This document shows, one piece after another, positions 2,007 through 54,261 of a stretch of 64,000 nucleotides of DNA. The translations under genes were made by a program, and so were the position numbers. Position 1 is the stretch's first letter, and each line of letters begins with the position of its first letter. This DNA is from a virus: positions 213,090-277,089 of the IMG/VR virus record IMGVR_UViG_3300046787_000200; one strand, written 5' to 3'. Below the pieces are notes generated by a model. The model saw only the letters and a list, made by a program, of their open reading frames with translations. It was not told where the DNA came from and searched no databases.

Positions 2007-2489
2007 ATGGCAAATAAAAAATTCTTTTCAACAAAAACATACAGACAAATAGGTCCTGTCGCATACCGTCAATGGCGTGCTGATAGTCATTGTAATTTGA
2101 TTCATGGCTATGCTATGAGTTTTCACTTTGAGTTTGAAGCCGACACACTAGATGCTCGTAATTGGGTAACTGACTTCGGTGGACTACGCCCACTTAAAGA
2201 TAAACTAGAAGAATGGTTTGACCATACTCTATTAGTCGCACAAGATGATCCTATGCGTGATGAACTATTGCGTTTAGGTGAATTGAAACTAGCAAAGATT
2301 ACAGAAGTAGAACGCACTGGCTGTGAAGGTATTGCTGACTTCTTGTATGAATACATTAACACAATCTTCTTGCCCAATTGCGGTAGTGAAGAAGCTAAAC
2401 GTGTATGGTGCTGTAGAGTAGAGGTCCGTGAGACTGATAGTAATATGGCAGGGCGTGGTGGTCACCGAGAAGATAGAGAGTTTGAATGA
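2007..2489 (+). CDS. queD: 6-carboxy-5,6,7,8-tetrahydropterin synthase (QueD / PTPS family)
   Basis: 160 aa. CxxHGH-type motif SHCNLIHGYAMSFHFEF matches the QueD zinc site and fold pattern. Confidence 0.8.
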   Translation: MANKKFFSTKTYRQIGPVAYRQWRADSHCNLIHGYAMSFHFEFEADTLDARNWVTDFGGLRPLKDKLEEWFDHTLLVAQDDPMRDELLRLGELKLAKITEVERTGCEGIADFLYEYINTIFLPNCGSEEAKRVWCCRVEVRETDSNMAGRGGHREDREFE

Positions 2490-3661: not shown

Positions 3662-4506
3662 GTCATTTAAAAGTATCAGAGTTATTTTACAGCATTCAAG
3701 GTGAGGGTAGATACATGGGTGTTCCCTCCGTGTTCTTACGAACATATGGATGTAATTTTACATGCGGTGGATTCGGCATGTCTAAGGGAGAAGTTAGTAG
3801 TGAGAGAGATGTTATTGCGATTAAAGCAGAAGATTATACAGATTATAAATCCCTACCGCTTGTCAGTACGGGATGTGATAGTTACGCAAGTTGGGACCCT
3901 AGGTTTAAACATCTTAGTCCTGTGCTCACTACCGATGCTATTGCTAGTAGCATTATGGATATACTTCCTCATGGGCGTTGGATGGATGAGCATCTTGTTA
4001 TTACAGGTGGTGAACCTCTTCTCGGTTGGCAAAGAGCGTATCCAGAATTACTTTCGCATGAAAAAATGAAGGCATTGAAAGAGATTACATTTGAAACTAA
4101 CGGCACACAAGAACTGAGTCAAGACCTTAAAGTATATCTACAACAATGGAAGATCAACAGAGAAAAGAATGCATTAACATTTAGTGTAAGCCCTAAATTA
4201 AGCATTAGCGGTGAGAAGTGGGAAGAAGCAATTCGTCCTGAGATTATTCATCAATATGAAAGTATAGGCTTTGTATATTTGAAGTTTGTTATTGCTACGA
4301 GTGAGGATGCACTTGAAGCAGATAAGGCAGTTAAAGAATATCGTCACAGAGGATTTAGAGGGCCAGTATACTTTATGCCATGCGGTGGTGTAGAATCACT
4401 TTACAATCTAAATGCTAAGAATGTAGCTATTGAAGCAATGAATCGAGGATATAGATACAGTGATAGATTGCAAGTGCCGTTGTTTAAAAATGAATGGGGA
4501 ACATAA
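3658..4506 (+). CDS. queE: 7-carboxy-7-deazaguanine synthase-like radical SAM protein (QueE)
   Basis: N-terminal ELFYSIQGEG matches the QueE signature. Cysteine motif is GCNFTCGGFG, i.e. non-canonical spacing. Confidence 0.7.
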   Translation: MSHLKVSELFYSIQGEGRYMGVPSVFLRTYGCNFTCGGFGMSKGEVSSERDVIAIKAEDYTDYKSLPLVSTGCDSYASWDPRFKHLSPVLTTDAIASSIMDILPHGRWMDEHLVITGGEPLLGWQRAYPELLSHEKMKALKEITFETNGTQELSQDLKVYLQQWKINREKNALTFSVSPKLSISGEKWEEAIRPEIIHQYESIGFVYLKFVIATSEDALEADKAVKEYRHRGFRGPVYFMPCGGVESLYNLNAKNVAIEAMNRGYRYSDRLQVPLFKNEWGT

Positions 4507-4688
4507 TGAAAGAAATAGTAATAACAAGAAATCAATTTGAGAAATTAAAAGAAGTTTTTGAAATGTACGACCTTGATAGAGTTGTTTGGAAAGAAAATTC
4601 ATCTAGTGGCATCGGTCCCACAGTTACAATTGAATTTGATCCAAAGAGCACAATGAAGATGGACATCACCGATGTTGATAGTTGGTAA
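4494..4688 (+). CDS. hypothetical protein
   Basis: 64 aa ORF overlapping the queE stop; in the operon orientation. Confidence 0.4.
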   Translation: MGNIMKEIVITRNQFEKLKEVFEMYDLDRVVWKENSSSGIGPTVTIEFDPKSTMKMDITDVDSW

Positions 4689-4705
4689 TAATATAAAGGA
4701 AATTA

Positions 4706-5806
4706 ATGAGTTATTTATTTACAAGTGAGAGCGTATCGGAGGGACACCCTGATAAAATTGCAGATGCAATTAGTGATAAAGTATTAGATTTAGTAATGAC
4801 ACATGAGGATCGAGCATTACGTTGTGCATGTGAAACATTGGTTACTACTAATCGTGTTATTGTTGCAGGTGAGTATAAAGGAGTATTGCACAACGAAGCC
4901 GTAGAAAATGCTGTACGTGATGTTATTAAAGATGTAGGTTATGAACAATTAGGTTTTGATTGGCGTACAGTAGAGATTACTAATCTATTGCACGGACAAA
5001 GTGCTGATATTGCGTTAGGTACAGATACGTTTGGTGCAGGTGATCAAGGATTAATGTTTGGCTATGCATGCAATGAAACAGATGTACATATGCCCTCAGC
5101 TATCTATTGGGCGCATCGTATTGTAGAAGAACTAACACAGATTCGTAAGTCAGGGTCAGTTGAATGGTTAGGTCCAGATGCTAAAAGTCAAGTAACATTT
5201 GAATATAACGATGACAATACACCTAAGCGTATTAGTAAAGTAGTGTGTTCAACGCAACACAGTGAAGGTATTGATATCAATTCAGTTAGAATGGGTGTTG
5301 AGAATATCATTCGAGGAATACTACCGGAACAATATTTAGACAATGAAACTGAATTCTTTATTAACCCAACTGGTCGATTTGTTATCGGTGGTCCTGATGG
5401 TGACACTGGGCTTACTGGCCGTAAGATTATCGTTGATACTTATGGTGGGTATAGCCCTCATGGTGGCGGAGCCTTCAGTGGCAAAGATCCTACTAAAGTG
5501 GATAGGTCTGCTGCCTACATGATGCGATATATTGCTAAAAATATTGTAGCAAGCGGACAAGCAAACTGGGCTACTTGTCAGATTAGTTATGCTATTGGTA
5601 TGGCACAACCTATGAGTTTCTACATTGAAACTGCACATACTGAACAAAGTCGCACACTAACAAAATGGGTACAAGACAATGTTGATTTGACACCTAACGG
5701 TATCATTGATCGTTTTGATTTGTTTAGACCGATCTATAGTAGCACAACTAACTATGGTCACTTTGGTAAGCCAGACTTGCCTTGGGAAAAAGTAGATTTG
5801 TTCTAA
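4706..5806 (+). CDS. metK: S-adenosylmethionine synthetase
   Basis: 366 aa. SESVSEGHPDKIADAISD N-terminus and MetK-wide conservation. Confidence 0.9.
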   Translation: MSYLFTSESVSEGHPDKIADAISDKVLDLVMTHEDRALRCACETLVTTNRVIVAGEYKGVLHNEAVENAVRDVIKDVGYEQLGFDWRTVEITNLLHGQSADIALGTDTFGAGDQGLMFGYACNETDVHMPSAIYWAHRIVEELTQIRKSGSVEWLGPDAKSQVTFEYNDDNTPKRISKVVCSTQHSEGIDINSVRMGVENIIRGILPEQYLDNETEFFINPTGRFVIGGPDGDTGLTGRKIIVDTYGGYSPHGGGAFSGKDPTKVDRSAAYMMRYIAKNIVASGQANWATCQISYAIGMAQPMSFYIETAHTEQSRTLTKWVQDNVDLTPNGIIDRFDLFRPIYSSTTNYGHFGKPDLPWEKVDLF

Positions 5807-31603: not shown

Positions 31604-32416
31604 ATGAATCGTTCTATTAAACTCTCTCTTATCGCTATCGCAGTTGCATTGACTAGTGCTTGCACCCGTATTGAAACTGGTGAGGTCGGTGTTCGTGTTG
31701 GCTTTGACAAACAAGTCAAGCCCGGTGAACTTGAACCCGGTAGCTTCAACCAAGTGCTTGTCGGTGATGTGTTGACCTTCCCATACAAGGATGTTAATAT
31801 CACTATTGACAATATGACTCCTGTTGCGAAAGACAACAGCACTATGAAAGACCTTGATGCGGTGATTGTTTACAACATCAACAAGAATCAAGCCGCTGAA
31901 CTGTATTCTACCAAGAACCGCAGTTTCCACGCTGACTTCAAAGGCGACACTTACTTGATGTATAACTACATTGTTCAGAATGCCCGTAATGCTATCTACA
32001 AGTCTGCACGAAAGTATGAAGCATTGGATATGGCAGACAATCGCACTGAGATGGAGAATTACATCAAAGATGAAATCACACGCAACCTTGCAGAAGAAAA
32101 ACTAGATGGTAGTATCACTATCACACAGGTTATGATTCGTACTGTAGTTCCAAGTGATACAGTTGTTGCAAGTGCAAATGATTTGGTTCGTAGTAAAAAC
32201 GAATTGAAGCAAAAAGAAGTTGAAGTTAAAACTGCTGAAGCAGAGGCCCGTCGTATTGCGGCTCTAGCACAAAATGCAGGTGCTATTCAATATATGGATG
32301 CTCAGGCTCGTATGAAGCAAGCAGATGCGGCACTTGAAACTGCTAAGGCTATTGCATCATTCAAGGGTAATACTCTTGTGATTGGTGCTGGAACTAATGT
32401 CAATGTAGGTAAATAA
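31604..32416 (+). CDS. SPFH/Band-7 (stomatin/HflK-like) domain lipoprotein
   Basis: Lipobox LTSAC. IETGEVGVRVGF ... DLDAVIVYNI is SPFH-like. Coiled-coil C-terminus. Confidence 0.55.
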   Translation: MNRSIKLSLIAIAVALTSACTRIETGEVGVRVGFDKQVKPGELEPGSFNQVLVGDVLTFPYKDVNITIDNMTPVAKDNSTMKDLDAVIVYNINKNQAAELYSTKNRSFHADFKGDTYLMYNYIVQNARNAIYKSARKYEALDMADNRTEMENYIKDEITRNLAEEKLDGSITITQVMIRTVVPSDTVVASANDLVRSKNELKQKEVEVKTAEAEARRIAALAQNAGAIQYMDAQARMKQADAALETAKAIASFKGNTLVIGAGTNVNVGK

Positions 32417-33460: not shown

Positions 33461-35029
33461 ATGCGCTTAAAATTCCTATCTTTTTCAAATCTTACATTAT
33501 TGGTTGCACTATCATTAAGTTCAGTAGCAGCCTGGTATAGTATCATTGGCTTAACCGCTATCTTTGCAGGTGCGGTTATTCCTGTTATCATTATGGGTTC
33601 TATACTCGAAGTAGGTAAGATTACTACTACAGTATGGTTACGTAAATACTGGCATCGTGCTAGTTGGGTACTCAAACTATATCTTGTTCCTGCTGTTGTA
33701 GCATTAGCATTACTCACAAGCATGGGTATCTTTGGCTTCTTAAGTAAAGCGCACATGGACCAAGGTATCACATCAGGTGATGTGCAGGCTAAGTTAGCAC
33801 TTTATGATGAGAAGATAAAGACACAAAGAGATAATATTGAGTTAGCACGTAAAGCATTAACTCAAATGGATAACCAAGTTGACCAACGATTAAGTAGAGG
33901 TGATAGTGAAACTAGTGCTGAACGTGCAGTTGCTATTCGTAGACAACAAGCAGGTGAACGTAGTAAACTACAAAAAGATATTGGTGATGCACAAACACAA
34001 ATTGCTAAACTAAACGAAGAACGTGCGCCTATTGCGGCAGAGAATCGTAAAGTAGAAGCAGAAGTAGGTCCTATCAAATATATTGCCGCATTAATTTATG
34101 GTGATACTGCTGATAATAATATGTTAGAAAGTGCGGTAAGATGGGTTATTATATTATTGGTTGTTGTATTTGATCCATTGGCAATTGCACTTGTTCTTGC
34201 CGCTAATGCAAGTAAAGAATGGGATCTTGAAGAACCCGCAGAATATGATAAACCAGATGCATGGGTTGCTGATGTAGGTGAAAAACCTACTGTAGAAGAA
34301 ATTGAACCAGCATACGAGCCAGATGACGGTCCATTAACTGAAGAACAGATTGAACAAATCAAAGAAAGTGTCGATCCTGCTCCACCTGGATGGATGTTTG
34401 AGAAAAGTTCTATTATAAAAGATGAACCAGAAAAGTCAGTTGCAGAGTTGCATCCATACTTGAATCAGCCGTTCACACACTTTACTGATACTAAGCCAAT
34501 GGTTGCGCCCAAAGAAGAAGTAAAAGAAGAACCTATCGTTGAGAAAAAGCTAAAGAAGAAACGTGCTAAGAAAAAGGTTGAGCCAACTATTGAAACAGTA
34601 GACGTAACTACTGAAGAAGTTGTATTGCCTCCGGTAACAAAGTATAAAGAAATGCCTGGTGGTTATGTTGACTTTGAAGGTAAGCAGATTCAAAAAGATG
34701 CATTAAAGAGTTTGCGTCCGGATTTGTTTATGGTTAAACCAGACAGAACAAATGGGCAAGTTGAAACAGATTTTGGAACAAAGTTCCCCGAAACAGCAAA
34801 ACGTGGTAATATCTTTGTTCGTGTAGATGTTTCTCCCAATCGTGTCTATAAGTTTGATGGCCGTCAATGGATTGAAATGCAAAAGGAACAAACCGATACA
34901 TACCTTCACAACCAAAAGTATATTGAATTCCTAGTAGGAAAAATAGAAAAAGGTGAGTATGATATCGAGTTATTGTCCGATACCGAACGTGAAGAAATTG
35001 CCCAATATTTAGGTAACCAAAAGAGTTGA
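33461..35029 (+). CDS. large membrane protein with an N-terminal multi-TM region and extended coiled-coil/charged domains
   Basis: 522 aa. Three or four hydrophobic helices in the first 100 aa, a heptad-like charged middle section, and another TM around residue 225. Confidence 0.5.
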   Translation: MRLKFLSFSNLTLLVALSLSSVAAWYSIIGLTAIFAGAVIPVIIMGSILEVGKITTTVWLRKYWHRASWVLKLYLVPAVVALALLTSMGIFGFLSKAHMDQGITSGDVQAKLALYDEKIKTQRDNIELARKALTQMDNQVDQRLSRGDSETSAERAVAIRRQQAGERSKLQKDIGDAQTQIAKLNEERAPIAAENRKVEAEVGPIKYIAALIYGDTADNNMLESAVRWVIILLVVVFDPLAIALVLAANASKEWDLEEPAEYDKPDAWVADVGEKPTVEEIEPAYEPDDGPLTEEQIEQIKESVDPAPPGWMFEKSSIIKDEPEKSVAELHPYLNQPFTHFTDTKPMVAPKEEVKEEPIVEKKLKKKRAKKKVEPTIETVDVTTEEVVLPPVTKYKEMPGGYVDFEGKQIQKDALKSLRPDLFMVKPDRTNGQVETDFGTKFPETAKRGNIFVRVDVSPNRVYKFDGRQWIEMQKEQTDTYLHNQKYIEFLVGKIEKGEYDIELLSDTEREEIAQYLGNQKS

Positions 35030-35035
35030 AAACAA

Positions 35036-35064
35036 TTAAGTATTAGTATATAATATACATATTG
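35036..35064 (+). promoter_or_regulatory. sigma70-like promoter TTGAAA-N17-TATAAT
   Basis: Upstream of the lipoprotein gene at 35085. Confidence 0.4.
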
Positions 35065-35084: not shown

Positions 35085-35705
35085 ATGAAGCTCACGCTTA
35101 TCGCATTGTCTTGTGTAATCTTTGCAGGATGTGCTAGTAATAAAGGTGAAATTCCTACTATTGAATCACAATCATTCAAAATCAGTAAAAATGAATCAAT
35201 CAAAATTGATAAAGCATGTGGTTGGATTCAACGAGATAAATGTACTATTGAAAGAATCGAAGCTGTTGGTGTTCAACCATCAGTAGGTGCAACACGTTCA
35301 TTGCAAAAATCAACTACACTTATGGCTTGTGATAACGCTAGAGCCAACGTAGTTAGTTATGTGTTCGGCACTAATGTTAGTGAGAATAGAGTTGCACGAA
35401 CAAAGAACAAGCAGAATGAAAATCAAAAAGACCGTGTAAAGTCTAAGACTGAGATTGGTCAAGATGTTGATATGGCAAGTGATGACAATGAGAAAGATAC
35501 TAATTACAGTATCCGAGAAGCATTGATTAACTCTGACATTGATATGGTTCGAACAATCACTACATCTAGTCAAGGTAAATTAGTTGGATTTAGGATTGAA
35601 GATGCTAGACCAATTGATGCTAAAACAATTGCTTGTACTATCACTTGGAGCAAGAATGATAGCCAAGATTTGAAGAAAGTCCGTAGTTTAATTTCAGGAC
35701 AATAA
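35085..35705 (+). CDS. lipoprotein (LPP20-like)
   Basis: Lipobox IFAGC and an LPP20-like VGVQPSVGATRS ... A..A..V block. Confidence 0.45.
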   Translation: MKLTLIALSCVIFAGCASNKGEIPTIESQSFKISKNESIKIDKACGWIQRDKCTIERIEAVGVQPSVGATRSLQKSTTLMACDNARANVVSYVFGTNVSENRVARTKNKQNENQKDRVKSKTEIGQDVDMASDDNEKDTNYSIREALINSDIDMVRTITTSSQGKLVGFRIEDARPIDAKTIACTITWSKNDSQDLKKVRSLISGQ

Positions 35706-36673
35706 TGAAAAAATTACTATCAGGATTGTTATGTCTGGTAGCTACAACTGCAGGTGCTATACAAGTTACTGGCGAAGGTTCTACGTTTGAAGAAGCAAAA
35801 CAAAATGCTTTTAAAACAGCAATTGAATTTGAAGCTGGTGCGGTTGTAGTTAGTGAACGTGAAAGCAGTAACTATAAATTAGTAAGGAATGAGATTCTAG
35901 TTTATAGTTCTGGCTACATCACTGATTATAAAATCATTAGTTCCATTAATCAAGGCAATCAATTCAAGGTATTAGTAGATGTTCAAGTTGCTAGTAACAA
36001 ACTAGCTGATAGGATATTGGGTGTAGGTAAGGATGCTAAAACTTTTGATACTGACAAACACAGTAATCAATATAATAGTTATTTGCAGGGTAAACAAAAC
36101 GGTGATAGATTGTTACAACAACTATTAAATGATTACCCTAAAAAAGCATACAATCTTACACAAGGTGTTCATCAGTTAAAAGTTGATGTTAATCGTAATG
36201 GTATCATTGAAATCCCATTAGAGTTACGTTGGAACTATAAGTTTATTGAATCATTTAATGAGGCACTTAAAATTTTAGAAGATGGTAGTAATGGTTTATT
36301 AAAAGCTAGTCCGAGTAACGTTACAGTAATGGCGAAGGATCCTAAAGATTGGGTAATAGGTAGTAAAAATCAGTATAAGTTTAATGATATGAATACTGTA
36401 TCTATGATTACGCAAACATTACAGAACAATCAACCTAGAATTTTAGTTAGCATTAAGAATCTTAATAACAAGATTGCATTTCAACAATGTTATATTCCCG
36501 ACTCAATGTCAGGAAAGAAGCCGGCATTTTATGATGCTAGCAATCACGTTGTAGTATATGGAAATCGTGTTGAGAAGAATAAAATTTTCTTAAATTTTGT
36601 AAACATGCACGAAGTAATTAAAGAGATTCAAAGCATAGAACTAAACATTGTAGCAGATAATAACTGTCCATAA
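35705..36673 (+). CDS. secreted/periplasmic protein with an N-terminal LPP20-like domain
   Basis: Signal peptide, then VTGEGSTFEEAKQNAFKTAIEFEAGAVVVSE. TAATG overlap. Confidence 0.45.
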   Translation: MKKLLSGLLCLVATTAGAIQVTGEGSTFEEAKQNAFKTAIEFEAGAVVVSERESSNYKLVRNEILVYSSGYITDYKIISSINQGNQFKVLVDVQVASNKLADRILGVGKDAKTFDTDKHSNQYNSYLQGKQNGDRLLQQLLNDYPKKAYNLTQGVHQLKVDVNRNGIIEIPLELRWNYKFIESFNEALKILEDGSNGLLKASPSNVTVMAKDPKDWVIGSKNQYKFNDMNTVSMITQTLQNNQPRILVSIKNLNNKIAFQQCYIPDSMSGKKPAFYDASNHVVVYGNRVEKNKIFLNFVNMHEVIKEIQSIELNIVADNNCP

Positions 36674-36711: not shown

Positions 36712-37914
36712 ATGTCAACAGAAAACAAACTCAATCATTGCTCATTTTGTGATAAACACAAAGATGATGTTAAGAAACTAATTGTTAGCGAAGAAGTGGC
36801 AATTTGTAGTGATTGCGTAGAACTATGCAATTCACTTATGTTAGATGATGATGGTAAAAGTGAATTTGTATCGGAAGATACTGTATCATATGATCCAGAA
36901 TCAATTAAAGATTATCTTGACCAACATGTTATCGGACAAGATAATGCTAAAAAAGTGTTAAGTGTTGCTATTGCTAATCACTATAAACGTATCAACCGGC
37001 CACCAAAAGACTTAGAAATCTCTAAGGGTAATGTGTTGCTTGTTGGTCCTACTGGCTCAGGTAAAACATTGCTTGCTAAGACAGTTGCCAAATATCTCAA
37101 AGTGCCCTTTGTTGTAGCAGATGCGACAAGTATCACTGAAGCTGGTTATGTAGGTGATGACGTTGAATCCATGATTAGTATGTTACTCAATGCCGCTGGC
37201 GGTGATGTTAAACTGGCCGAGCGTGGTATTGTGTTCATTGATGAGATTGACAAGATTGCACGTAAAGGCGAATCTGCAAGTATCACCCGTGATGTGTCAG
37301 GTGAGGGTGTTCAGCAAGCTTTACTGAAAATGGTTGAAGGCACTGTATGTCGTATTCCAGCAGGTGGTGGACGTAAACATCCCGGTGGTGATATGATTGA
37401 GATTAACACTAAGAATATCTTATTCATTGCCGGTGGTGCATTTGTTGGGTTGAAAGATATTATTAAAAGTAGAGAAACTGGATCTAGTATCGGGTTCGGG
37501 GCTAAAATCAAAGATAAGAGCATAGAGGGCAATCTAAGCAACGTTAGCCCAGACGATTTAGTTAAATTCGGTATGATTCCTGAATTCATCGGACGTTTCA
37601 CTACTACTGTAAACGTAGAGGATTTGAGCAAAGAAGATTTGGTAAAGGTATTGACTGGTATTAAGAATAACTATATCGACCAATACAAGTATTTGCTGAG
37701 TTTAGACAACATTGAGTTAAACTTCACAGAAGATGCATTGGATCAGTTAGCAGAGAATACACTAGCATTGAAAACAGGTGCTCGTGGATTGCATACTGAG
37801 ATTGAGCGTGTATTGATGACACATATGTTTAATACTAAGAAATACCGTGAAAATAAAATTCTAAACATAAATATAGATAGAAAACAAATTTTGGAGCCAA
37901 AAGTATTAGTATGA
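36712..37914 (+). CDS. clpX: ATP-dependent Clp protease ATP-binding subunit ClpX
   Basis: N-terminal C4 zinc domain (CSFC ... CSDC), Walker A LLVGPTGSGKTLLAKT, and ClpX-wide similarity over 400 aa. Confidence 0.9.
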   Translation: MSTENKLNHCSFCDKHKDDVKKLIVSEEVAICSDCVELCNSLMLDDDGKSEFVSEDTVSYDPESIKDYLDQHVIGQDNAKKVLSVAIANHYKRINRPPKDLEISKGNVLLVGPTGSGKTLLAKTVAKYLKVPFVVADATSITEAGYVGDDVESMISMLLNAAGGDVKLAERGIVFIDEIDKIARKGESASITRDVSGEGVQQALLKMVEGTVCRIPAGGGRKHPGGDMIEINTKNILFIAGGAFVGLKDIIKSRETGSSIGFGAKIKDKSIEGNLSNVSPDDLVKFGMIPEFIGRFTTTVNVEDLSKEDLVKVLTGIKNNYIDQYKYLLSLDNIELNFTEDALDQLAENTLALKTGARGLHTEIERVLMTHMFNTKKYRENKILNINIDRKQILEPKVLV

Positions 37915-38126
37915 GAGGTAGAAAGGTTTTAGTTCAGGACGGAAACGTAGACAAAGCATTGCGAAAATTTAAAAAAATTATCGCAGACTATGGTACCTTG
38001 CAAGAGGTTCGTGACCGTCAAGAATTTGTAAAGCCTACTATCAAACGCAAATTAGCAAGAAGCCAGGCGAAAAGACGCTGGAACAAGTATTTGCGTGACC
38101 AAAGTCTTCCTAAGAAAAACTTTTAA
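37911..38126 (+). CDS. rpsU: ribosomal protein bS21
   Basis: 71 aa. KVLVQDGNVDKALRKFKK ... EVRDRQEFVKPTIKRK aligns with bacterial S21. ATGA overlap with clpX. Confidence 0.8.
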   Translation: MRGRKVLVQDGNVDKALRKFKKIIADYGTLQEVRDRQEFVKPTIKRKLARSQAKRRWNKYLRDQSLPKKNF

Positions 38127-38232
38127 GTTCCAAAATAGTAGATTTTTTTGCATATTTTTATTATAATAAATATGTATTCAGATGCCGATGGTCGGGTCTG
38201 AAATATGTCATCTTGCTTAAAAGGAGAAAAAA

Positions 38233-38685
38233 ATGACAAATCAATTAACCCTTCGTTCCTTAGACATTCCGTCTATTCATAAGTTCTCAGTCGGTTTCGA
38301 CCGTATGTTTGACGAACTAACTCGTAATCAAGCGCAACAATCAAACTACCCCCCATATAACATTGTACAAATCAATGAAGATGAATATATGATTAGTGTT
38401 GCTGTTGCAGGTTTCGGGCCTGATAATCTATCAGTTACAAAAGATAAAAACTTCCTAGTAATTGAAGGTAATCATGCATTGAATAGTATTAAAACTAACG
38501 ATGCAGATCCTGTATATCTACATAAGGGTATCAGTGAGCGTAACTTCCGACGTGAGTTCCGTTTAGCGGACCATGTAGAGATTGAGAACGCACATTTAGA
38601 ATTGGGTATCTTAAGTATTCACTTGAAACGTGAAGTTCCTGAAGAACAAAAGCCCAAGTCTATTGCAATTACCTACACTAAATAA
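38233..38685 (+). CDS. ibpA: small heat-shock protein (IbpA/IbpB, Hsp20 family)
   Basis: SVGFDRMFDEL ... YPPYNIVQINEDEYMISVAVAGF, i.e. the alpha-crystallin domain. Confidence 0.85.
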   Translation: MTNQLTLRSLDIPSIHKFSVGFDRMFDELTRNQAQQSNYPPYNIVQINEDEYMISVAVAGFGPDNLSVTKDKNFLVIEGNHALNSIKTNDADPVYLHKGISERNFRREFRLADHVEIENAHLELGILSIHLKREVPEEQKPKSIAITYTK

Positions 38686-38748
38686 TATAATAGTGTTTCA
38701 TTAAAACAAGTGTGCGGGGCAACTCGCACACATAACTAAAAGAAAATT

Positions 38749-39054
38749 ATGTCTAAAACTGATACTAAAATTAAAATCAAACCTAATCTTGCACTAGCAG
38801 AACCCCCATTGTATAAAATCATTTATATCAATGATGAAGTAACCAGTATGCAATTTGTAGTAAACAGTTTGATTAGTTATTTTAATTATAATGAAGATAC
38901 TGCAACTTCATTGACAGAGAATATTCATCATCAAGGTAGTGCAGTTGTTGCAGTTTTACCGTACGAAATTGCAGAGCAAAAGGGAATTGAAGTAACACTT
39001 GATGCACGTAGCAAGGGTTTTCCACTACAAGTCAAAGTAGAAGCTGAGGCTTAA
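38749..39054 (+). CDS. clpS: Clp protease adaptor ClpS (N-degron recognin)
   Basis: PPLYKIIYINDEVTSMQFVV ... HHQGSAVVAVLPYEIAE matches the ClpS core. Confidence 0.8.
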   Translation: MSKTDTKIKIKPNLALAEPPLYKIIYINDEVTSMQFVVNSLISYFNYNEDTATSLTENIHHQGSAVVAVLPYEIAEQKGIEVTLDARSKGFPLQVKVEAEA

Positions 39055-39752
39055 ACTTCTATATCAATGCGTTTAGGCCAATACGGTCTACGTCCGTAAT
39101 ATGAATTGTTGATATAATTAATATTTTCTATTGTTGTATCAACATTTTTATCATAACTTCCATATATCCAAGTAGATACTTTATGTTCAGAATCATGACC
39201 TAGTATCTGTGTTAACGGGATTTGATCACTTATCATATCTGGTTGTTCCCCAAAATATAAATTAGGTCCCGGAACTGAATGTGTAACTACTATTATCTTT
39301 TTTACATCTAAATGTAATTGTAGTTTTGATAGGCTTGATCCTATGTAAGATATATCTTCTACATGTTGTCCATGTAGGTGTAATTTCTCTAATGTTGACG
39401 GTGTATCAATGTTACTACCATACCATCCGTTAGTTCCCAATATAGCTATACCGTTTATAACGACAACATGTCTATGTAGGAACGCAACATTGTTTATTGA
39501 TTTACATATTTGATTTATTTCAAGGTATCTGTTTTTTACTAGATGAAGCGAATCATGTTCTAATGATCCTGCAATGTAAAAAATACCCTGATAAAATTTT
39601 GATAAATGAAGCAGGGTTTGATGTATTACTCGCAATTCACTGCTTATATTTCCAGCAATTATTAGGTATAGGCTTGTTGCCTTATTTTCCCAATTAAAGC
39701 TATCTTCAGCGCCTAAATTTAAGTCGCTGATAACATCAAACCCTATATTCAT
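39051..39752 (-). CDS. calcineurin-like metallophosphoesterase (weak motifs)
   Basis: 233 aa on the minus strand. LIIAGNIS, GSLEHD and VVTHS blocks. TAATG-coupled to the upstream minus-strand gene. Confidence 0.45.
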   Translation of the reverse strand: MNIGFDVISDLNLGAEDSFNWENKATSLYLIIAGNISSELRVIHQTLLHLSKFYQGIFYIAGSLEHDSLHLVKNRYLEINQICKSINNVAFLHRHVVVINGIAILGTNGWYGSNIDTPSTLEKLHLHGQHVEDISYIGSSLSKLQLHLDVKKIIVVTHSVPGPNLYFGEQPDMISDQIPLTQILGHDSEHKVSTWIYGSYDKNVDTTIENINYINNSYYGRRPYWPKRIDIEV

Positions 39753-40030
39753 TAAGCTTGAGTAGTTGGCTTAGCTTTTGGTGCTCTTGGCTTAGCTGGT
39801 GCTTTAGCCTTAGGTGCAGCCGGAGCTTTTGGCTTGGCTGGAGCTTTTGGCTTTGCAGGTGCTTTTGCTTTAGCTTTTGCCGGCGCCTTTTCAGCAACCG
39901 GAACAGGTGCTTCTACAGCCAATGGAATCGGCGTAGTTGCGGCTGGCTCTGGAACTTTGTATGGGGCAGATGGGGCTGCCTCTACTGGTTTAGCTGAAAA
40001 ACCAAACAAATTCTTTAAAAAATCTAACAT
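39752..40030 (-). CDS. Ala/Pro/Lys-rich (histone H1/AlgP-like KAPAKP repeat) protein
   Basis: 92 aa with repeats of KAPAKPKAPAKP. AGGAGA ribosome-binding site on the minus strand. Confidence 0.5.
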   Translation of the reverse strand: MLDFLKNLFGFSAKPVEAAPSAPYKVPEPAATTPIPLAVEAPVPVAEKAPAKAKAKAPAKPKAPAKPKAPAAPKAKAPAKPRAPKAKPTTQA

Positions 40031-40128
40031 TTCTGTCTCCTAAACATATATTTACTCGGGTTGGAAATCCGTATATTTTTTCCGTAAAGTACGCATTGTT
40101 ATGGGCAATATAGTATCATAAATACATT

Positions 40129-40620
40129 ATGTTCAGAAACGCAAATTTAGCCGAACTTATGCGTGAGGAGTTGCCTCCGATAGCATATCAAAAACGCCTT
40201 CTTTATAGAACGGACTATGATGAAGTTGTAGCACTTTATCGCCTGATTAATAAAACTATTTTCAACAATAAACTTATCATGCCTGAAATTGAGGTTATGC
40301 CACGTTGTAGAAAATACTGGGGAATGTGCTATGGTGCATTAAAAATGCCCACTAAGAATAAAAGCTTTTGCAAAATACGTATGATGGATAAATGGTATTG
40401 TCGTCAATGGTTAATTAATGTATTAGCACATGAAATGTGTCATCAATATCAATGGGATGTTGAGGGAGTTCGTAGACTTAATCGAGGACAACAACCTATA
40501 ATGAGTCATGGTCCTAGTTTCTTTGTATTCAGAGACAAATTAAAGAAACATGGCATAGCATTAAAAAGCGCACATAGCAAACGTAAGTGGTTTCACCATC
40601 AAAACTTATTTAAGTGTTGA
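40129..40620 (+). CDS. SprT-like zinc metalloprotease domain protein
   Basis: HEMCH (HExxH motif) in NVLAHEMCHQYQW. Confidence 0.45.
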   Translation: MFRNANLAELMREELPPIAYQKRLLYRTDYDEVVALYRLINKTIFNNKLIMPEIEVMPRCRKYWGMCYGALKMPTKNKSFCKIRMMDKWYCRQWLINVLAHEMCHQYQWDVEGVRRLNRGQQPIMSHGPSFFVFRDKLKKHGIALKSAHSKRKWFHHQNLFKC

Positions 40621-40638
40621 ATCTGATAAATACTCATT

Positions 40639-42207
40639 ATGCGTGATTTAATAACATTACTTGAAAACCTAGCTATGGCAGAAGCCGCAAAGAAAGATCC
40701 TAATGCTCCTTCTACACTCTTTGCTAATGGCTTAACACCTACACAAATTAATAAAGAGCCTGCAAGATGGAACTTATTGATTAATAAAATAAAGACTAAT
40801 AAACCATTTGTTGATAACTACACAGGTGAGGATATCTATATCAAACCAAGTGAAGTCAATCGTCTTACACAACTTAAAGATGAAGGTAAGTTTAAAGGGG
40901 AAAAAGTTACTATTATAACTAAAGATGGTAGAGAAATCCCAATGGCTCAGTTAGCCAAAAATGAAGAATTTGGCGGCAGTACTAAAGAATCTGTTTTACT
41001 AAAGCCATCACTAATTAAAATCACTGATAGAGATATACCTGCGTCTGACTTGTATGAAACAATTGAAAACAATCAAGTATTAGCAAGCACCGATTACGGG
41101 CAAGTAGTCCAACAACTTGCTACATATATTGTATCCGGTGAGTATGTTCAGATGCCAGAACAATATACAACAAAAGAAAAAGAAAAAGAACGCAAAGCTA
41201 TTGTTGATTATGCAGGTGAGTATTTAGGTGTGTTAGCTTTGTTATATGACCGTAGTCGTTTCCCGAGAAAACGTCAGTTCCAAGAATGGCTTGGTGGTGA
41301 TATGGGTTCATTGGTATTAAATTTCCCTAGTGCGGCTAACAATAACATTGCAGATAGTTATGCTACTATCACTAATCCAGGTACAAGTCATAGCTTGAAC
41401 ATTTCAAGTAAAGGAACCGGTGGCGGAGCGGCGCCTGCAGTATCTGGATTGAAAGTTAGTGAAGATATTAAACGTAATCCTAAATTACGAAACGCAGTAA
41501 AACTTATTGAATTATGCCAAGCAGGTAAAGATGCTAGTGGTCCAAGCACAATTGTTCAAGCATTTAAGATTATGGATTTCTTATTTAAAGTGAATCCAAG
41601 TAGCATTCCTAAAATATGGCACAAGTTTTTGCCATTCGAAAGTAAAGCTCCAAAGATACTACAACAAAGTATTGATAGCATAAACAACGGCACTTCATTA
41701 CCATCGTCATATCAACCACTGCTTAATGCAGTAAACAGTGAAACTGCTACTGATGGTGGTAAGCTGGTATATCTCATTAAGAAAACTATTGCACATAGTG
41801 TAAATGAGGGTAATGCAATTCCTGAATTTGCTGATACTATCTTACAAGTTTTAGAAATGAACTTCATCCAACAATATACAGATTATCATAGCAACGGTGA
41901 ACTAACCTTTGCAACTCAGTGGCCATCTAAGTTGTCAGGTGTCGTTACATTAGAAAACAAGTCAAGTGCAAAAGAACCAAGTAGTGCTGGTTTTAGCTTC
42001 AAGTTGGGTAGAAATGCACAAGATTATGATGATCCAGGTCCAGACGGTGCGACCGGAGATGTTATTCAGCCAGATGAATACGGAGATGATGTGGGTGCGG
42101 CTGCGGCAGATATTGTTGAACCAAAAATCAACAACAAAAATGTCAGGGCATTCGCCAAACCTGAACCCGAAGCTGATATCGGCATCGGTCGTAAGAAGCG
42201 TAAATAA
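40639..42207 (+). CDS. hypothetical protein (522 aa) with a basic C-terminal tail
   Basis: Long ORF with diverse composition, ending GIGRKKRK. Confidence 0.5.
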   Translation: MRDLITLLENLAMAEAAKKDPNAPSTLFANGLTPTQINKEPARWNLLINKIKTNKPFVDNYTGEDIYIKPSEVNRLTQLKDEGKFKGEKVTIITKDGREIPMAQLAKNEEFGGSTKESVLLKPSLIKITDRDIPASDLYETIENNQVLASTDYGQVVQQLATYIVSGEYVQMPEQYTTKEKEKERKAIVDYAGEYLGVLALLYDRSRFPRKRQFQEWLGGDMGSLVLNFPSAANNNIADSYATITNPGTSHSLNISSKGTGGGAAPAVSGLKVSEDIKRNPKLRNAVKLIELCQAGKDASGPSTIVQAFKIMDFLFKVNPSSIPKIWHKFLPFESKAPKILQQSIDSINNGTSLPSSYQPLLNAVNSETATDGGKLVYLIKKTIAHSVNEGNAIPEFADTILQVLEMNFIQQYTDYHSNGELTFATQWPSKLSGVVTLENKSSAKEPSSAGFSFKLGRNAQDYDDPGPDGATGDVIQPDEYGDDVGAAAADIVEPKINNKNVRAFAKPEPEADIGIGRKKRK

Positions 42208-42220
42208 TTACCAAAAACAT

Positions 42221-42249
42221 TTGACTTTAACATAAACTTCTGTTATAAT
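42221..42249 (+). promoter_or_regulatory. sigma70-like promoter TTGACT-N17-TATAAT upstream of clpP
   Basis: TTGACT at 42221, TATAAT at 42244. Confidence 0.5.
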
Positions 42250-42278
42250 AGTGGAAACATTATTTTTAAAGGAAGTTT

Positions 42279-42866
42279 ATGTCTCTAGTACCAATCGTTA
42301 TTGAACAAACAAGCAAAGGTGAACGTAGCTATGATATCTATAGCCGTCTAATGCGTGACCGTGTTATTCTGCTTGAAGGTGAAGTTCACGACCAAATGGC
42401 AAATCTAATTGTTGCTCAACTACTATTCCTCGAAAGTGAAGGTGACAAAGATATCTCAATGTATATCAATAGCCCAGGTGGTAGTGTAACTGCTGGTATG
42501 GCAATCTATGATGCTATGCAATTCATTAAACCCGATGTACAAACAATCGTTATGGGTCAAGCTTGTTCAATGGGTTCACTACTCGCACAAGCAGGAGCTA
42601 AAGGTAAACGTATGATGTTGCCTAATGCACGACACATGATTCACCAACCCTCAGGTGGCGCACGTGGTATGCAAAGTGATATCGAAATCAGCTATAAAGA
42701 AATTACTTACTTGAAGAAACGCCTAACCGATATCTATGTCAAGCATAACAGTGCAGGAAAGACTTATGAAGAATTTGAACGAGACATGGACCGTGATAAG
42801 TTCATGTCGGCTGAAGAAGCATTAGCTTACGGCTTGATTGATAAAATTATTGAAAAGAGAGAATAA
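42279..42866 (+). CDS. clpP: ATP-dependent Clp protease proteolytic subunit ClpP
   Basis: [19 protein letters not shown]-type N-terminus. Catalytic-region blocks [23 protein letters not shown] and HQPSGG. Confidence 0.9.
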
Positions 42867-42867
42867 A

Positions 42868-43359
42868 ATGCCTTGGATCGAGAATATTGCATTAGTAGAT
42901 GTAGCGAAGGCTCGTCATCATAATGCTGGCGAAAACAGTATGCTAATACAAATTGTCGATCCGGCTATGGAGTTCCCTGCTCCGTTGCATAAGTTCAAAG
43001 AGATTCATCAGTTTGAGTTTTTGGACCTTGAAAGCAATGATCCATGGGGAGAAGAATTTAAAGTAACTGATTCACAAGCTGAAAGCCTTGTTAAGTTACT
43101 ACAACATGCATTGGAGAAAAGAATGAATGTAGTAGTTCATTGTGTCGCCGGTGTATGTCGCAGTGGTGCAGTTTGTGAAGTTGGTGTTATGATGGGCTTC
43201 AATGATACTGAAGCTTTTCGTAGTCCTAACTTAATGGTTAAGCATAAGATGATGAAGGTTCTAGGATGGACCTACGATGAAAACGAGCCCCATACAATCA
43301 ATGGTGTAACTACTGATTGGGGCTTCGTCCTACCAAAAGAGCGTGAGGGCGATATCTAG
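42868..43359 (+). CDS. protein-tyrosine / dual-specificity phosphatase (CX5R)
   Basis: VVVHCVAGVCRSGAV. Start trimmed to the ATG just after the clpP stop. Confidence 0.6.
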   Translation: MPWIENIALVDVAKARHHNAGENSMLIQIVDPAMEFPAPLHKFKEIHQFEFLDLESNDPWGEEFKVTDSQAESLVKLLQHALEKRMNVVVHCVAGVCRSGAVCEVGVMMGFNDTEAFRSPNLMVKHKMMKVLGWTYDENEPHTINGVTTDWGFVLPKEREGDI

Positions 43360-52481: not shown

Positions 52482-53536
52482 CATATTCAGTTTATCAACA
52501 TTGGGATCCATTAAAGGTAATGGTAGTAGGAAAATCATATCCTCCCGAGTTATATGATTACATTAAGAACGAAAAGGTTCGTAAAGTATTTTATCAAATC
52601 GCAGAAGAAACAGAAGAAGATTATCAAAAGTTATCTAACTTGTTATCTACATTCGGAGTAAACGTTATACGTTGTGATATGGATGAACAAACAGCATTCG
52701 CAAAACAATGTATTAAGAAAAATGCTCCTATATCAAAACCATGGGCTATGCAACCGAGAGATGCTACAATTATGTTAGGCGAAACATTTTATTGTAGTGA
52801 TCATATGGTGCAACCATTGCATGAAGCGTTAGATTTATTAAAATTAAATGGTAATAAAATTGATACTATGGTTCCTGATTCAGGCTTCAAGTATAATAAT
52901 AACCCTATCTATATGAATGCCGCAATGACAACACGTGTGGGTAAAGATTTAATAATAGGAACACTTGATCAAGTTGACAAAGATACTAACATAGGTTTGT
53001 TAGAGAAAAATCTACAAGATAGGTTTACTGAGTACCGAGTCAAAATGATTGCTACACACGGGCATACTGATGGGTGTTTTTGTCCAGTAGTACCTGGTTT
53101 GATTTTTAGTATTATGGGACCATGGAATTATAAAAGTACTTTTCCTGATTGGGAAGTGTTGTACTTACACGGTGAATCTTGGTCTAAGGTACAAAACTTT
53201 TTAAACTTAAAGAAAAACAATGCAGGTAAATGGTGGGTGCCAGGACAAGAACTAAACCAAGATTTTACTGATTACGTAGAAACTTGGATGAATCATTGGG
53301 TTGGATATGTAGAAGAAAGTGTATTTGATGTTAATATGATTGTAGTTGACAAAAAGAATGTTATCGTAAATAGCTACAATGAAAAGGCATTCGATGCGTT
53401 TAGTCGTCATGGCATAACACCGCATATCTGCAACTTCCGTCATCGTTATTTCTGGGACGGTGGATTACATTGTATTACGTCAGATATCCACCGTGAAGGT
53501 GTGATGGAAGATTACTTCCCGGAACGTAATCAATAA
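52478..53536 (+). CDS. amidinotransferase-superfamily enzyme (glycine/inosamine amidinotransferase-like)
   Basis: C-terminal GGLHCITSDIHREG matches the GGxHCxTxDxxRxG catalytic-Cys block. Start at the ATG overlapping the previous stop. Confidence 0.45.
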   Translation: MTYSVYQHWDPLKVMVVGKSYPPELYDYIKNEKVRKVFYQIAEETEEDYQKLSNLLSTFGVNVIRCDMDEQTAFAKQCIKKNAPISKPWAMQPRDATIMLGETFYCSDHMVQPLHEALDLLKLNGNKIDTMVPDSGFKYNNNPIYMNAAMTTRVGKDLIIGTLDQVDKDTNIGLLEKNLQDRFTEYRVKMIATHGHTDGCFCPVVPGLIFSIMGPWNYKSTFPDWEVLYLHGESWSKVQNFLNLKKNNAGKWWVPGQELNQDFTDYVETWMNHWVGYVEESVFDVNMIVVDKKNVIVNSYNEKAFDAFSRHGITPHICNFRHRYFWDGGLHCITSDIHREGVMEDYFPERNQ

Positions 53537-54261
53537 GTAAGTGCAAGAAGCTTTGCTTCAGGAATACGTGTCTTAGTATTCTTTGAACCTAACAGGACTA
53601 CGGTCCTGATTCCATTTGCAGTATCAATCATCATAACGATACATCCACCTGCTTTACTAATAAAGCCTGTCTTACTGACTAAGAACTTATAGCCATTACC
53701 TACTAGACTATTTGTGTTTCTAAACTCTGCTGTTTTCTTCTTAGTAAGAGGCCAACGAACTGCATCCATATTACTTGCATGAACAATTAGTGGATACTGA
53801 CTTGCCGCAAGTACTAACTTAATCAAATCTTCTGCCGTACTTACGTTTGTATGAAATCTACCAGTTGGGTCAGTAAATGCACTATTAGACATTTGTAATG
53901 ATACTGCCTTTGCATTCATGGCTTCAACACAATTTTTATATCCACCGGGATAATAATCACATAACATCTTTGCGGCATTGTTGTCTGATTTTACAATTGC
54001 TAAATCAATCAATGTTTCACGTGTTAACTGCTTGTTGTACAATTTCTTTGGGATAATTTCCGTTAATGATTGTCCGCTGTCTAGTACGACCATTGCTGTC
54101 ATTAGTTTAGTAATGCTTGCGATACTACGGATCTCTGTGGTATTAGAACCTTCAAGTATCTTTCCATTAATATCAGCAACTAACCAAGCTTGCGCTGTTA
54201 ATGGGGTTGCATGTACTGAACTTGACACAAGCAATAATGTTATTAATAGTTTTTTAATCAT
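53530..54261 (-). CDS. serine-type D-Ala-D-Ala endopeptidase/carboxypeptidase (PBP7/PbpG-like, S11)
   Basis: Signal peptide, SITK (SxxK), SDN (SxN) and KTGF (KTG) motifs in the correct order. Confidence 0.7.
   Translation of the reverse strand: MIKKLLITLLLVSSSVHATPLTAQAWLVADINGKILEGSNTTEIRSIASITKLMTAMVVLDSGQSLTEIIPKKLYNKQLTRETLIDLAIVKSDNNAAKMLCDYYPGGYKNCVEAMNAKAVSLQMSNSAFTDPTGRFHTNVSTAEDLIKLVLAASQYPLIVHASNMDAVRWPLTKKKTAEFRNTNSLVGNGYKFLVSKTGFISKAGGCIVMMIDTANGIRTVVLLGSKNTKTRIPEAKLLALTY

Follow-up and report, generated by a model that had tools for sequence, protein, structure and literature searches.

We analyzed a 64,000-nt stretch of viral DNA (the window; positions 213,090 to 277,089 of IMG/VR record IMGVR_UViG_3300046787_000200) that encodes ClpX, ribosomal protein bS21, a small heat-shock protein (sHSP), ClpS, a SprT-like protease, and ClpP. 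Sequence comparisons suggest that these genes probably form a conserved proteostasis-and-translation neighborhood of an uncultivated jumbo phage, a compact version of a region that the cultured jumbo phages Atu_ph07 and Phosso also have. In the window, the genes run in the order clpX, the bS21 gene, the sHSP gene, clpS, two minus-strand genes, the SprT-like gene, a 522-aa open reading frame (ORF), clpP, and a phosphatase gene, and the block from clpX to clpP spans 6.2 kb. All positions are window coordinates unless another locus or contig is named.

ClpX relatives were found in 458 IMG/VR stretches. The best 80 of these, with ClpX at 72 to 91% identity on contigs of up to 525 kb, were used for counts of synteny and conservation, and the module proteins were placed in the 80 loci by tblastn. 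Almost everywhere, these relatives keep the two secreted proteins encoded upstream of clpX, ClpX itself, bS21, the sHSP, ClpS, a minus-strand phosphoesterase, the SprT-like protein, and ClpP, and this conserved gene order indicates that the module is real. For bacteria, we compared ClpX with one genome per species across 185,579 bacterial and archaeal species; among the matches listed, which give a lower bound on coverage, the closest bacterial ClpX reached 53% identity, and top matches came from Spirochaetes, Bacteroidota, Campylobacterota, Proteobacteria, and others. Given 72 to 91% identity within the clade versus at most 53% to the bacteria scanned, the module appears to be an old, vertically kept feature of a phage clade and not a recent capture from a host, which agrees with the older of two origins that an earlier note on this DNA had set side by side. 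No close DNA-level cultured relative was found in 50,697 phage records, and the exact window ClpX was found in just one 1.7-kb Logan contig, too short for gene context.

On this reading, a very large and mostly uncultivated phage clade keeps a near-complete bacterial toolkit of heat-shock proteolysis and holdase activity as a stable syntenic unit, not as a sporadic auxiliary gene. At least 80 IMG/VR contigs bear the module, some of them longer than 500 kb, and with them the benefit of a phage-encoded ClpXP can be studied on clean material.

Proteins of the module

Proteins were assigned with Pfam, NCBIfam, and PHROG profiles and by alignment to solved E. coli ClpS, ClpX, and ClpP, and residue conservation was measured on distinct relatives (62 for ClpX, 57 for ClpS, 58 for the sHSP, and 45 for the SprT-like protein). 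ClpX passes two NCBIfam equivalogs (PRK05342/NF003745, 520.2 bits against a cutoff of 359; TIGR00382, 500.4 against 370.75) and matches the Pfam families zf-C4_ClpX (48.8 bits) and AAA_2. Aligned over its full length with E. coli ClpX (8e91), it retains the C4 zinc-finger N-domain, Walker A and B, the GYVG pore loop, the RKH loop, the IGF loop that docks on ClpP, and sensor II. The four Cys residues, Walker A, GYVG, and the Walker B motif D-E-x-D-K are invariant across relatives, and RKH and IGF are rarely substituted (in 1 to 3 of 62).

ClpP scores 267 bits on Pfam CLP_protease (PF00574) and 307.4 bits on PRK00277 (cutoff, 249). Its Ser-His-Asp triad is intact, the triad motifs, including RD-x-F, are invariant in relatives, and the N-terminal loop sequence of E. 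coli ClpP is kept. The E. coli enzyme carries an N-terminal propeptide. Residue 1 of the phage protein aligns to residue 15 of the 208-residue ClpP chain in 8r05, and in the alignment with mature E. coli ClpP (1tyf) its residue 3 falls on residue 2; since its start coincides with the mature E. coli N terminus, the phage ClpP has no propeptide, a point that the earlier note had raised. By these comparisons, the phage is predicted to encode a complete ClpXP protease with a ClpP of mature type.

The assignment of the stand-alone ClpS to Pfam PF02617 (84.1 bits; cutoff, 23) is accompanied by an ungapped alignment to residues 18 to 104 of E. coli ClpS. In the N-degron pocket, N34, D35, T38, and H66 are invariant and M40 is present in 49 of 57 relatives, position D36 varies among E, D, and N, and T replaces M62. 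Ribosomal protein bS21 scores above both of its cutoffs (PF01165, 58.5 bits against 27; TIGR00030, 55.7 against 28.95), and its ATG overlaps the clpX stop by 4 nt (ATGA), an overlap found also in 61 of 73 relatives that implies translational coupling of the two genes.

The sHSP matches Pfam HSP20 (PF00011, 59.6 bits) and PHROG 432 (E value, 2e-41), and is 40% identical to E. coli IbpA over its full length. It has an alpha-crystallin domain followed by a C-terminal I-x-I motif in which I144 and I146 are invariant. Two further invariant residues, Y39 and R103, align to Y34 and R93 of E. coli IbpA. The SprT-like protein (PF10263, 32 bits against 25.6) contains HEMCH at residues 101 to 105, with the H, E, and H of H-E-x-x-H invariant. 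The phosphatase has a perfect HCVAGVCRS (HCX5R) P-loop, with scores of 28.3 bits on Pfam DSPc, under the cutoff of 33.5, and a borderline 21.2 on Y_phosphatase (20.9). Its more likely start is the ATG at 42868, 2 nt past the clpP stop, over the TTG at 42838. It is a variable neighbor, found beside clpP in only 4 of 80 relatives. The 522-aa ORF between the SprT-like gene and clpP is present in 28 of 80 relatives at 30 to 93% identity and had no match in Pfam, NCBIfam, PHROG, or the PDB. In the earlier note, these genes had been named from the DNA alone. Profile searches, with scores far above chance, bear out its ClpP, ClpS, HSP20, bS21, and SprT-like genes, as well as its full-length ClpX with a zinc-binding N-domain, whose four Cys residues align. 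Its name IbpA is apt in the sense of IbpA-like, and its CX5R phosphatase has the P-loop but falls short on the family profile.

Full-length DnaK (Hsp70) is encoded in 35 of 80 relatives, mostly between the bS21 and sHSP genes and, in three, upstream of clpX; the window has no dnaK in its 64 kb. One 524,565-bp contig, IMGVR_UViG_3300027749_002876, carries the module twice, in opposing orientations, at 462110-483309 (locus L003) and 52530-73726 (locus L010). One of its modules carries dnaK (at 11514-13409 in L003) and a ClpX 89% identical to that of the window; the other lacks dnaK, with ClpX at 81%. Either the module is truly duplicated in this phage, or two related phages were joined into a chimeric assembly.

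A ROSE-like leader upstream of the sHSP gene

The 106-nt gap between the bS21 and sHSP genes contains a leader with a full-length but sub-threshold match to Rfam ROSE_3 (27.1 bits; E value, 0.02 in a 7-kb search). Two hairpins are predicted. Hairpin I is GC-rich (UUCAGAU-G-CCG...CGG-GUCUGAA), while in hairpin II CUU[G]CU pairs with the AGGAG Shine-Dalgarno sequence around a bulged G and GUCAU pairs with the start codon region AUGAC. Hairpin II thus has the ROSE signature, U(U/C)GCU set against the Shine-Dalgarno sequence with a bulged G, and a single-sequence fold predicts that the AUG is sequestered.

Covariation in an alignment of 57 distinct sHSP leaders from relatives is consistent with this structure. 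RNAalifold recovered hairpin I unaided, with compensatory double changes in 7 of 9 pairs. Across the 19 pairs of the whole structure, 97.6% of cells can pair, compared to 41 to 46% with slid partners, and 105 cells hold double changes against 35.7 in shuffles, with 0 of 500 shuffles reaching the observed value. The UUGCU-AGGAG helix pairs in 98.9% of cells. The G-C-U-U of UUGCUU and AUGAC are invariant, and conservation is 90% or higher for the other bases of the motif and for AGGAG; within UUGCU, four of the five bases do not vary, and the first U is kept in at least 90% of leaders.

A covariance model built from the sHSP leaders alone was searched against the window, the relatives, and cultured phages. 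The model found one copy in the window, a second copy (26 to 53 bits) before full-length dnaK in relatives, and the leader of the Phosso sHSP gene (31 bits; E value, 6e-4). In Atu_ph07, the sHSP leader has a similar architecture by eye, with no match to the covariance model, and Rfam ROSE models had no match at an E value of ≤1 in the Atu_ph07 and Phosso loci.

E. coli IbpA binds its own 5′ untranslated region and represses its own translation, for which it needs Y34 and R93 (PMC10474464). As the corresponding residues are invariant in the phage sHSPs, the leader could answer to temperature, to titration of the sHSP by aggregates, or to both. About three RNA thermometers had been counted in phages by 2024, none of ROSE type (PMC11182007), and we found no phage ROSE element in the literature searched; a ROSE-like leader therefore seems to be unreported in phages. 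If the leaders act as predicted, no ROSE-type riboregulator would have been described in a virus before them, within that literature, and they are short, easily testable RNA elements.

Transcription units and promoters

Features of the module are collected in Table 1. The genes lie in at least five transcription units on two strands, and the single plus-strand block described in the earlier note is interrupted by two minus-strand genes. The units are the lipoprotein, secreted-protein, clpX, and rpsU genes; the ROSE-like leader and sHSP gene; clpS; the minus-strand pair; the SprT-like gene and 522-aa ORF; and clpP with the phosphatase gene. The consensus promoter that had been assigned to clpP is present, with its upstream TG. 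What had been proposed as a coordinated take-over module is therefore a neighborhood conserved in 80 viral contigs, with invariant functional residues, but not one block.

Table 1. Features of the clpX-to-clpP neighborhood (window coordinates except in the last four rows)
Feature	Position	Strand	Basis or remark
Sigma-70 promoter, near-consensus	35026..35054	+	TTGAAA-17-TATAAT, 11/12; likely start of the unit including clpX and rpsU
Predicted lipoprotein gene	35085..35705	+	Signal peptide with FAGC lipobox; first conserved gene 5′ of clpX
Predicted secreted protein gene	35705..36673	+	N-terminal signal peptide; directly 5′ of clpX; conserved
clpX	36712..37914	+	AAA+ unfoldase; profile and alignment
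bS21 gene (rpsU)	37911..38126	+	Pfam and TIGR00030 above cutoff
-10-like TATAAT, conserved	38162-38167	+	Upstream of the sHSP leader
ROSE-like 5′ leader of the sHSP gene	38176..38238	+	Rfam ROSE_3 sub-threshold; covariation
sHSP gene, IbpA type	38233..38685	+	Pfam HSP20
clpS promoter, sigma-70-like	38663..38691	+	TTGCAA-17-TATAAT, 10/12
clpS	38749..39054	+	Pfam ClpS; 19-residue N-terminal extension
Metallophosphoesterase-like gene	39051..39752	-	PHROG 1649, E value 2.8e-9; TIGR03729, E value 5.8e-5 (below cutoff); no Pfam match
Gene for Ala/Pro/Lys-rich low-complexity protein, 92 aa	39752..40030	-	No family match
SprT-like metalloprotease gene	40129..40620	+	Pfam SprT-like; HEMCH
522-aa ORF, no assigned family	40639..42207	+	Variable neighborhood member
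clpP promoter	42221..42249	+	TTGACT-17-TATAAT with upstream TG, 11/12
clpP	42279..42866	+	Pfam CLP_protease, PRK00277
Cys-based phosphatase gene	42868..43359 (mechanical ORF from TTG 42838)	+	HCVAGVCRS P-loop
Further leader copy	L003 11452-11522		Relative
Further leader copy	L003 13415-13488		Relative
Further leader copy	L165 19832-19901		Cultured phage (Phosso)
Further leader copy	L163 27745-27675	-	Cultured phage

Promoters were scored as matches out of 12 to the sigma-70 -35/-10 consensus (TTGACA/TATAAT). In the relatives, a promoter of at least 10/12 precedes the lipoprotein gene in 49 of 61 loci, clpS in 64 of 77, and clpP in 46 of 66, while the secreted-protein gene, clpX, and rpsU mostly lack one. 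Since the promoter precedes the lipoprotein gene and the next three genes are mostly without one, clpX probably comes third in a unit of four genes. The window as a whole has 23 matches of at least 11/12, where about 2 would be expected on each strand; every one of them is on the plus strand, leaving the minus strand with none. Of these, 13 are exact TTGACA-N17-TATAAT, and all 23 have a 17-nt spacer. Most of them sit 30 to 35 nt 5′ of an ORF, often a small one (for example, at 8367, 8588, 12605, 23073, 23343, 23666, 25926, 26747, 29374, 29640, 43367, 44281, 44587, and 60945). Such one-directional consensus promoters are the signature of an early region transcribed by the host RNA polymerase.

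Some of these features bear on the host. A Shine-Dalgarno-like motif precedes 29 of 63 window ORFs, compared to 6.9 expected. Together with the TTGACA/TATAAT promoters, this usage argues against a Bacteroidota host, on general knowledge of that phylum. Indirect clues to the host are the sigma-70 consensus promoters, the use of Shine-Dalgarno sequences, and the proteobacterial type of the ROSE leader. No sigma-32 promoter was recognizable by eye upstream of the sHSP gene, and the motif WAATAAATAY, taken from that upstream region as a candidate repeated late promoter, was rejected, as its 3 matches in the window (3.7 expected) are no enrichment. Neither tRNAs nor Rfam families at gathering thresholds were found in the window.

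Upstream of clpX, the lipoprotein gene is found in the same place by tblastn in 63 of 80 relatives, mostly at 26 to 37% identity and at 72 to 77% in four, and the secreted-protein gene keeps its position adjoining clpX in most relatives; neither gene has a Pfam or PHROG family match. The metallophosphoesterase-like gene has the same position and direction in essentially every relative whose sequence covers this part. It converges with clpS, the two sharing their final 4 nt (39051-39054), and this tail-to-tail layout is kept in relatives. The other minus-strand ORF, found in only some relatives, encodes a protein made largely of Ala/Pro/Lys repeats (KAPAKPKAPA...), which we take to resemble histone H1-like or AlgP-like DNA-binding tails.

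How the module might act

We can sketch how the module might act. The host RNA polymerase would transcribe its units soon after infection. Hexamers of phage ClpX would dock on the phage's own ClpP, and possibly on that of the host as well, to form an ATP-dependent protease whose supply and specificity are independent of host gene expression. ClpS would bind the N-domain of a ClpA-type unfoldase, that of the host or a phage ClpA encoded elsewhere, shifting it toward N-degron substrates and away from others. Meanwhile, the sHSP would hold unfolded proteins, with its leader hiding the ribosome-binding site and start codon until heat or titration of free IbpA, and DnaK, in the relatives that have it, may be supplied under ROSE-type translational control as well. 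Translationally coupled to ClpX, bS21 may enter host ribosomes and bias initiation.

A more specific, joint reading is that the ROSE-like switch on the phage sHSP gene, and on dnaK in relatives, is a sensor of infection stress, such that chaperone supply tracks the folding load of virion proteins while ClpS re-programs host ClpAP beside phage ClpXP. In a cool cell, or as long as free IbpA-type protein is present, the leader would remain closed; titration of the sHSP by aggregates, or a rise in temperature, would open it. We offer this joint reading tentatively, and with slightly more doubt than belief.

Several observations weigh against these readings, in whole or in part. ClpS is below the cutoff of all ten NCBIfam ClpS equivalogs (best, 72 against 149), the sHSP is below that of the IbpA equivalog (NF008013, 130.2 against 212), and ClpP narrowly misses TIGR00493 (295.6 against 308.6), so that all three are divergent members of their families. 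No recognizable Shine-Dalgarno sequence lies upstream of clpX, and the sHSP gene lacks a promoter of at least 10/12 in 75 of 78 relatives, by which its timing may differ from that of the other module genes. The ROSE_3 score of the window leader is under the Rfam gathering score of 43, as are those of the two L003 leaders (27.7 and 24.8 bits). Nearest-neighbor folding between 4 and 50°C showed gradual opening only, with the AUG helix mostly closed; ROSE behavior relies on non-canonical pairs that the nearest-neighbor model misses. Regarding kinship with Atu_ph07 and Phosso, neighbor-joining trees (60 bootstrap replicates) of the phage clade and cultured phages with 29 to 40 bacterial sequences, none from Rhizobiales, grouped the clade with these two phages for ClpX (54/60) and ClpP (56/60). 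We regard this grouping as suggestive only, since long-branch attraction is possible, and ClpX identity to Atu_ph07 and Phosso is no higher than that to bacteria, in a bacterial sample without Rhizobiales.

As to the purpose of the module, we lean toward general proteostasis over targeted destruction of host proteins, given that the core genes are strictly conserved and accompany general chaperones with heat-shock-type leaders. Were the module instead an instrument of sabotage, it would destroy or disable host defense proteins, regulators, or ClpA substrates, with ClpS inhibiting or redirecting host ClpAP and the SprT-like protein and phosphatase acting as anti-host effectors. The early-type consensus promoters of the region would suit such a role, and so would the 522-aa ORF and phosphatase gene, which are variable, as arms-race genes would be; moreover, a patchy distribution of phage ClpS, ClpP, and SprT-like proteins has been published as fitting host-directed weapons (PMC7824862). 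Within this clade, however, the core genes are syntenic and not patchy, no substrate is known, and the module travels with an sHSP and often DnaK bearing heat-shock-type leaders, a company that fits bulk quality control. We therefore consider targeted sabotage unlikely.

ClpS and the question of ClpA

The earlier note had read the phage's unfoldase and N-degron adaptor as one machine. In such a self-contained machine, phage ClpS would deliver N-degron substrates to phage ClpXP without host Clp components. The genes clpX, clpS, and clpP are indeed neighbors and are co-conserved in the 80 relatives. Furthermore, no ClpA N-domain or D1 was found by tblastn in the 64-kb window or in flanks of ±10 kb around the 80 loci (1.36 Mb in total), where the only matches were cross-matches of ClpA D2 onto ClpX. 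Nor were any of seven module-bearing contigs of 231 to 525 kb among the matches listed in IMG/VR scans with E. coli ClpA (best 80 of 211) and Phosso ClpA (best 80 of 262). On the other side, ClpS is known to dock on the N-domain of ClpA or ClpC (PMC9663308, PMC8666677), not on ClpX (PMC9663308), and its N-terminal extension is engaged by the ClpA pore loops (PMC9663308, PMC8666677). The N-domain of the phage ClpX is a zinc finger, and the phage ClpS retains the ClpA contacts, with E79 and E82 invariant and K84 being K or R in the 57 relatives. This conservation of both the pocket and the ClpA contacts points to selection for binding both an N-degron and a ClpA-type N-domain. In addition, clpS has its own promoter, two minus-strand genes separate it from the SprT-like gene and clpP, and the cultured phages that bear ClpS also carry ClpA (Phosso, PA5oct and its relatives, and Atu_ph07 according to its paper). 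A self-contained machine is thus very improbable. With no ClpA nearby and ClpS docking on ClpA or ClpC, the phage ClpS would have to use host ClpA or a phage ClpA encoded elsewhere; in either case, sequence indicates that it is not a ClpX accessory. Experimental designs should pair ClpS with ClpA and not with ClpX.

Another role that has been suggested, both for the Clp proteins of Atu_ph07 (PMC6102473) and for phage HSP20 (PMC7674155), is in morphogenesis, with ClpXP and the sHSP serving virion assembly, for example through scaffold removal or the holding of capsid proteins. One RefSeq record labels Atu_ph07 ClpP a head maturation protease, and bS21 lies amid late structural genes in other phages. 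However, the model of phage head-maturation proteases gives the window ClpP just 104 bits, compared to 307 for true ClpP, ClpX retains the RKH loop and zinc finger used for cellular degrons and adaptors, and the module lies in a region of early-type promoters with no structural gene found within 64 kb. A role in morphogenesis has, in our estimation, very little probability.

Phage origin and surroundings of the module

The window is assigned to a phage because it is an IMG/VR sequence, is syntenic with cultured jumbo phages, and has a fitting gene content and pattern of promoters, and the gene order shared by 80 IMG/VR contigs agrees with the viral identity that had been assumed for this DNA. 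Among about 50 larger window ORFs scanned, with some 15 ORFs of 100 to 165 aa outside the scan, neither pmoC nor any gene for virion structure or packaging (capsid, portal, terminase, or tail) was found, and the core genes are all of bacterial housekeeping type; even so, it is extremely improbable that a piece of bacterial chromosome or plasmid, or an island derived from the host, was mis-binned as viral, because ClpX is far closer to viral contigs than to the best bacterial match listed, clpX and clpP are reversed and set apart compared to bacteria, the promoters run in one direction, the window has many family-less ORFs beside phage-type genes for DNA ligase, FEN exonuclease, UvdE, and dCMP deaminase, and the order of the module genes agrees with that in cultured jumbo phages.

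The gene content of the window is typical of large phages, with genes for S-adenosylmethionine (SAM) synthetase, PTPS, an epimerase, UvdE, a FEN-type exonuclease, a phage-type ATP-dependent DNA ligase, dCMP deaminase, and NT5C, along with many ORFs that belong to no family. For the DNA ligase, the best matches are in phages other than Atu_ph07-like ones. A metabolic run at 537-5806 encodes an APS kinase-like P-loop protein with a cytidylyltransferase-like tail, a PTPS/QueD-like protein, an FAD-dependent oxidoreductase (DAO), a protein with a weak radical-SAM match, and a complete SAM synthetase, and may represent a pathway of nucleotide or cofactor modification. Just upstream of the module are genes for an SPFH/Band-7 protein (31604-32416) and a 522-aa membrane protein (33461-35029) that has a coiled coil and matches DUF4407 weakly. 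In bacteria, membrane proteases are modulated by SPFH proteins. Among the few minus-strand genes of the window is that for a D-alanyl-D-alanine carboxypeptidase (53530-54261; Peptidase_S11, 124 bits).

Some GenBank-derived "phage" records showed apparent bacterial contamination, including short fragments from Listeria, Staphylococcus, and E. coli and the "Acinetobacter phage MD-2021a" contigs, which are about 220 kb long and have clpP-clpX and clpS-clpA operons. Because of such records, ClpX, ClpP, and ClpA seem commoner in phages than they are.

Comparison with known systems

The closest described counterpart of the sHSP leader is the ROSE_3 element of Pseudomonas ibpA (RF02523; PMC3669281). 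Both are leaders roughly 60 nt long, in which hairpin I is GC-rich and stable and hairpin II is weak; in hairpin II, U(U/C)GCU pairs imperfectly with the Shine-Dalgarno sequence, upstream of an IbpA-type gene, and the inner part of hairpin I (GAUGCCGA...GUCGGGUC) is nearly identical to the Rfam ROSE_3 consensus. The leader described here differs in being phage encoded, in having a start codon predicted to be paired (GUCAU/AUGAC) that is free in Pseudomonas, in having a sigma-70-like -10 element upstream instead of a sigma-32 promoter, and in recurring at dnaK in relatives.

Compared to ClpXP and ClpAPS of E. coli, the phage proteins keep all functional motifs of ClpX, the triad and N-terminal loop of ClpP, and the pocket and ClpA contacts of ClpS. 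The usual bacterial gene orders are clpP-clpX and clpS-clpA. In the window, clpX is followed by clpS and then clpP, with clpX and clpP 4.4 kb apart and in the reverse of the usual order, clpA is not found, and ClpP is without a propeptide.

Other phages share parts of the module. Pelagibacter phage HTVC008M and freshwater Bacteroidetes phages (PMC9723584) likewise encode a small basic bS21 homologue in a large aquatic-type phage, but in the Bacteroidetes phages the gene is late, on the reverse strand amid terminase, portal, and capsid genes, whereas here it is co-directional with clpX in a region of early-type promoters. PA5oct and Rak2-like phages, which have ClpS and/or ClpA, encode a ClpS of the same Pfam family that is only 29% identical; ClpA lies within about 21 kb of ClpS, and no ClpX match of at least 80% coverage was among the matches listed. 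The published reading for these phages is that phage ClpS feeds a ClpA-ClpP protease (PMC7824862).

The combination itself, which the earlier note had set against the stand-alone ClpP known from some phages, has precedents. Atu_ph07 was reported in 2018 to encode ClpX, ClpA, ClpB, ClpP, and ClpS (PMC6102473), and a 2021 survey of jumbo phages lists ClpP, ClpS (read as feeding host ClpAP), SprT-like peptidases, Hsp20, ClpA, and ClpX (PMC7824862). In 2022, Hsp20, counted 127 times, and two Clp proteases, counted 50 and 47 times, were among the commonest neighbors within ten genes of phage bS21 (PMC9723584), and in 2024 phage AP-J-162 was described with clpX beside the gene for initiation factor 3 (IF-3), plus Hsp20 and an S21 said to resemble an Atu_ph07 ORF (PMC11242549).

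Like the window, Atu_ph07, Phosso, and AP-J-162 are the closest phages in encoding ClpX, ClpP, ClpS, and an sHSP. Identities to Atu_ph07 and Phosso are 50 to 52% for ClpX, 35 to 38% for the sHSP, 37% for ClpS, and 66 to 69% for ClpP. On the minus strand of Atu_ph07, across the origin, the order is clpX, IF-3, ..., sHSP, thymidine kinase, clpS, ..., clpP, and in Phosso it is clpX, IF-3, ..., bS21, ..., sHSP, thymidine kinase, clpS. Both phages thus share with the window an order, on one strand, of clpX, a translation initiation gene, the sHSP gene, and clpS, followed by clpP in Atu_ph07 only, and in both a ROSE-like motif precedes the sHSP gene (in Atu_ph07 by eye). bS21 is annotated in the Phosso stretch and reported for AP-J-162, and none was seen in the Atu_ph07 stretches read. 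Differences are also apparent. The span from clpX to clpS is about 17 kb in Phosso, and that from clpX to clpP is about 29 kb in Atu_ph07, with many small ORFs, tRNAs, and thymidine kinase in between, against the 6.2 kb of the window. Both cultured phages carry ClpA, which was not found in the window or in the relatives' flanks, and their hypothetical neighbors are not detectably homologous to those of the window, only the Clp and sHSP genes matching. The slot directly after clpX is taken by IF-3 in Atu_ph07 (L164 244-747) and Phosso (L165 5309-5830) and by bS21, overlapping the clpX stop, in the window.

Both bS21 and IF-3 act on 30S initiation, and the placement of clpX beside an initiation gene in distant jumbo phages points to a linked early program of proteolysis and ribosome re-tuning. 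This kind of gene set is already known from cultured jumbo phages, and the window is its compact, uncultivated version.

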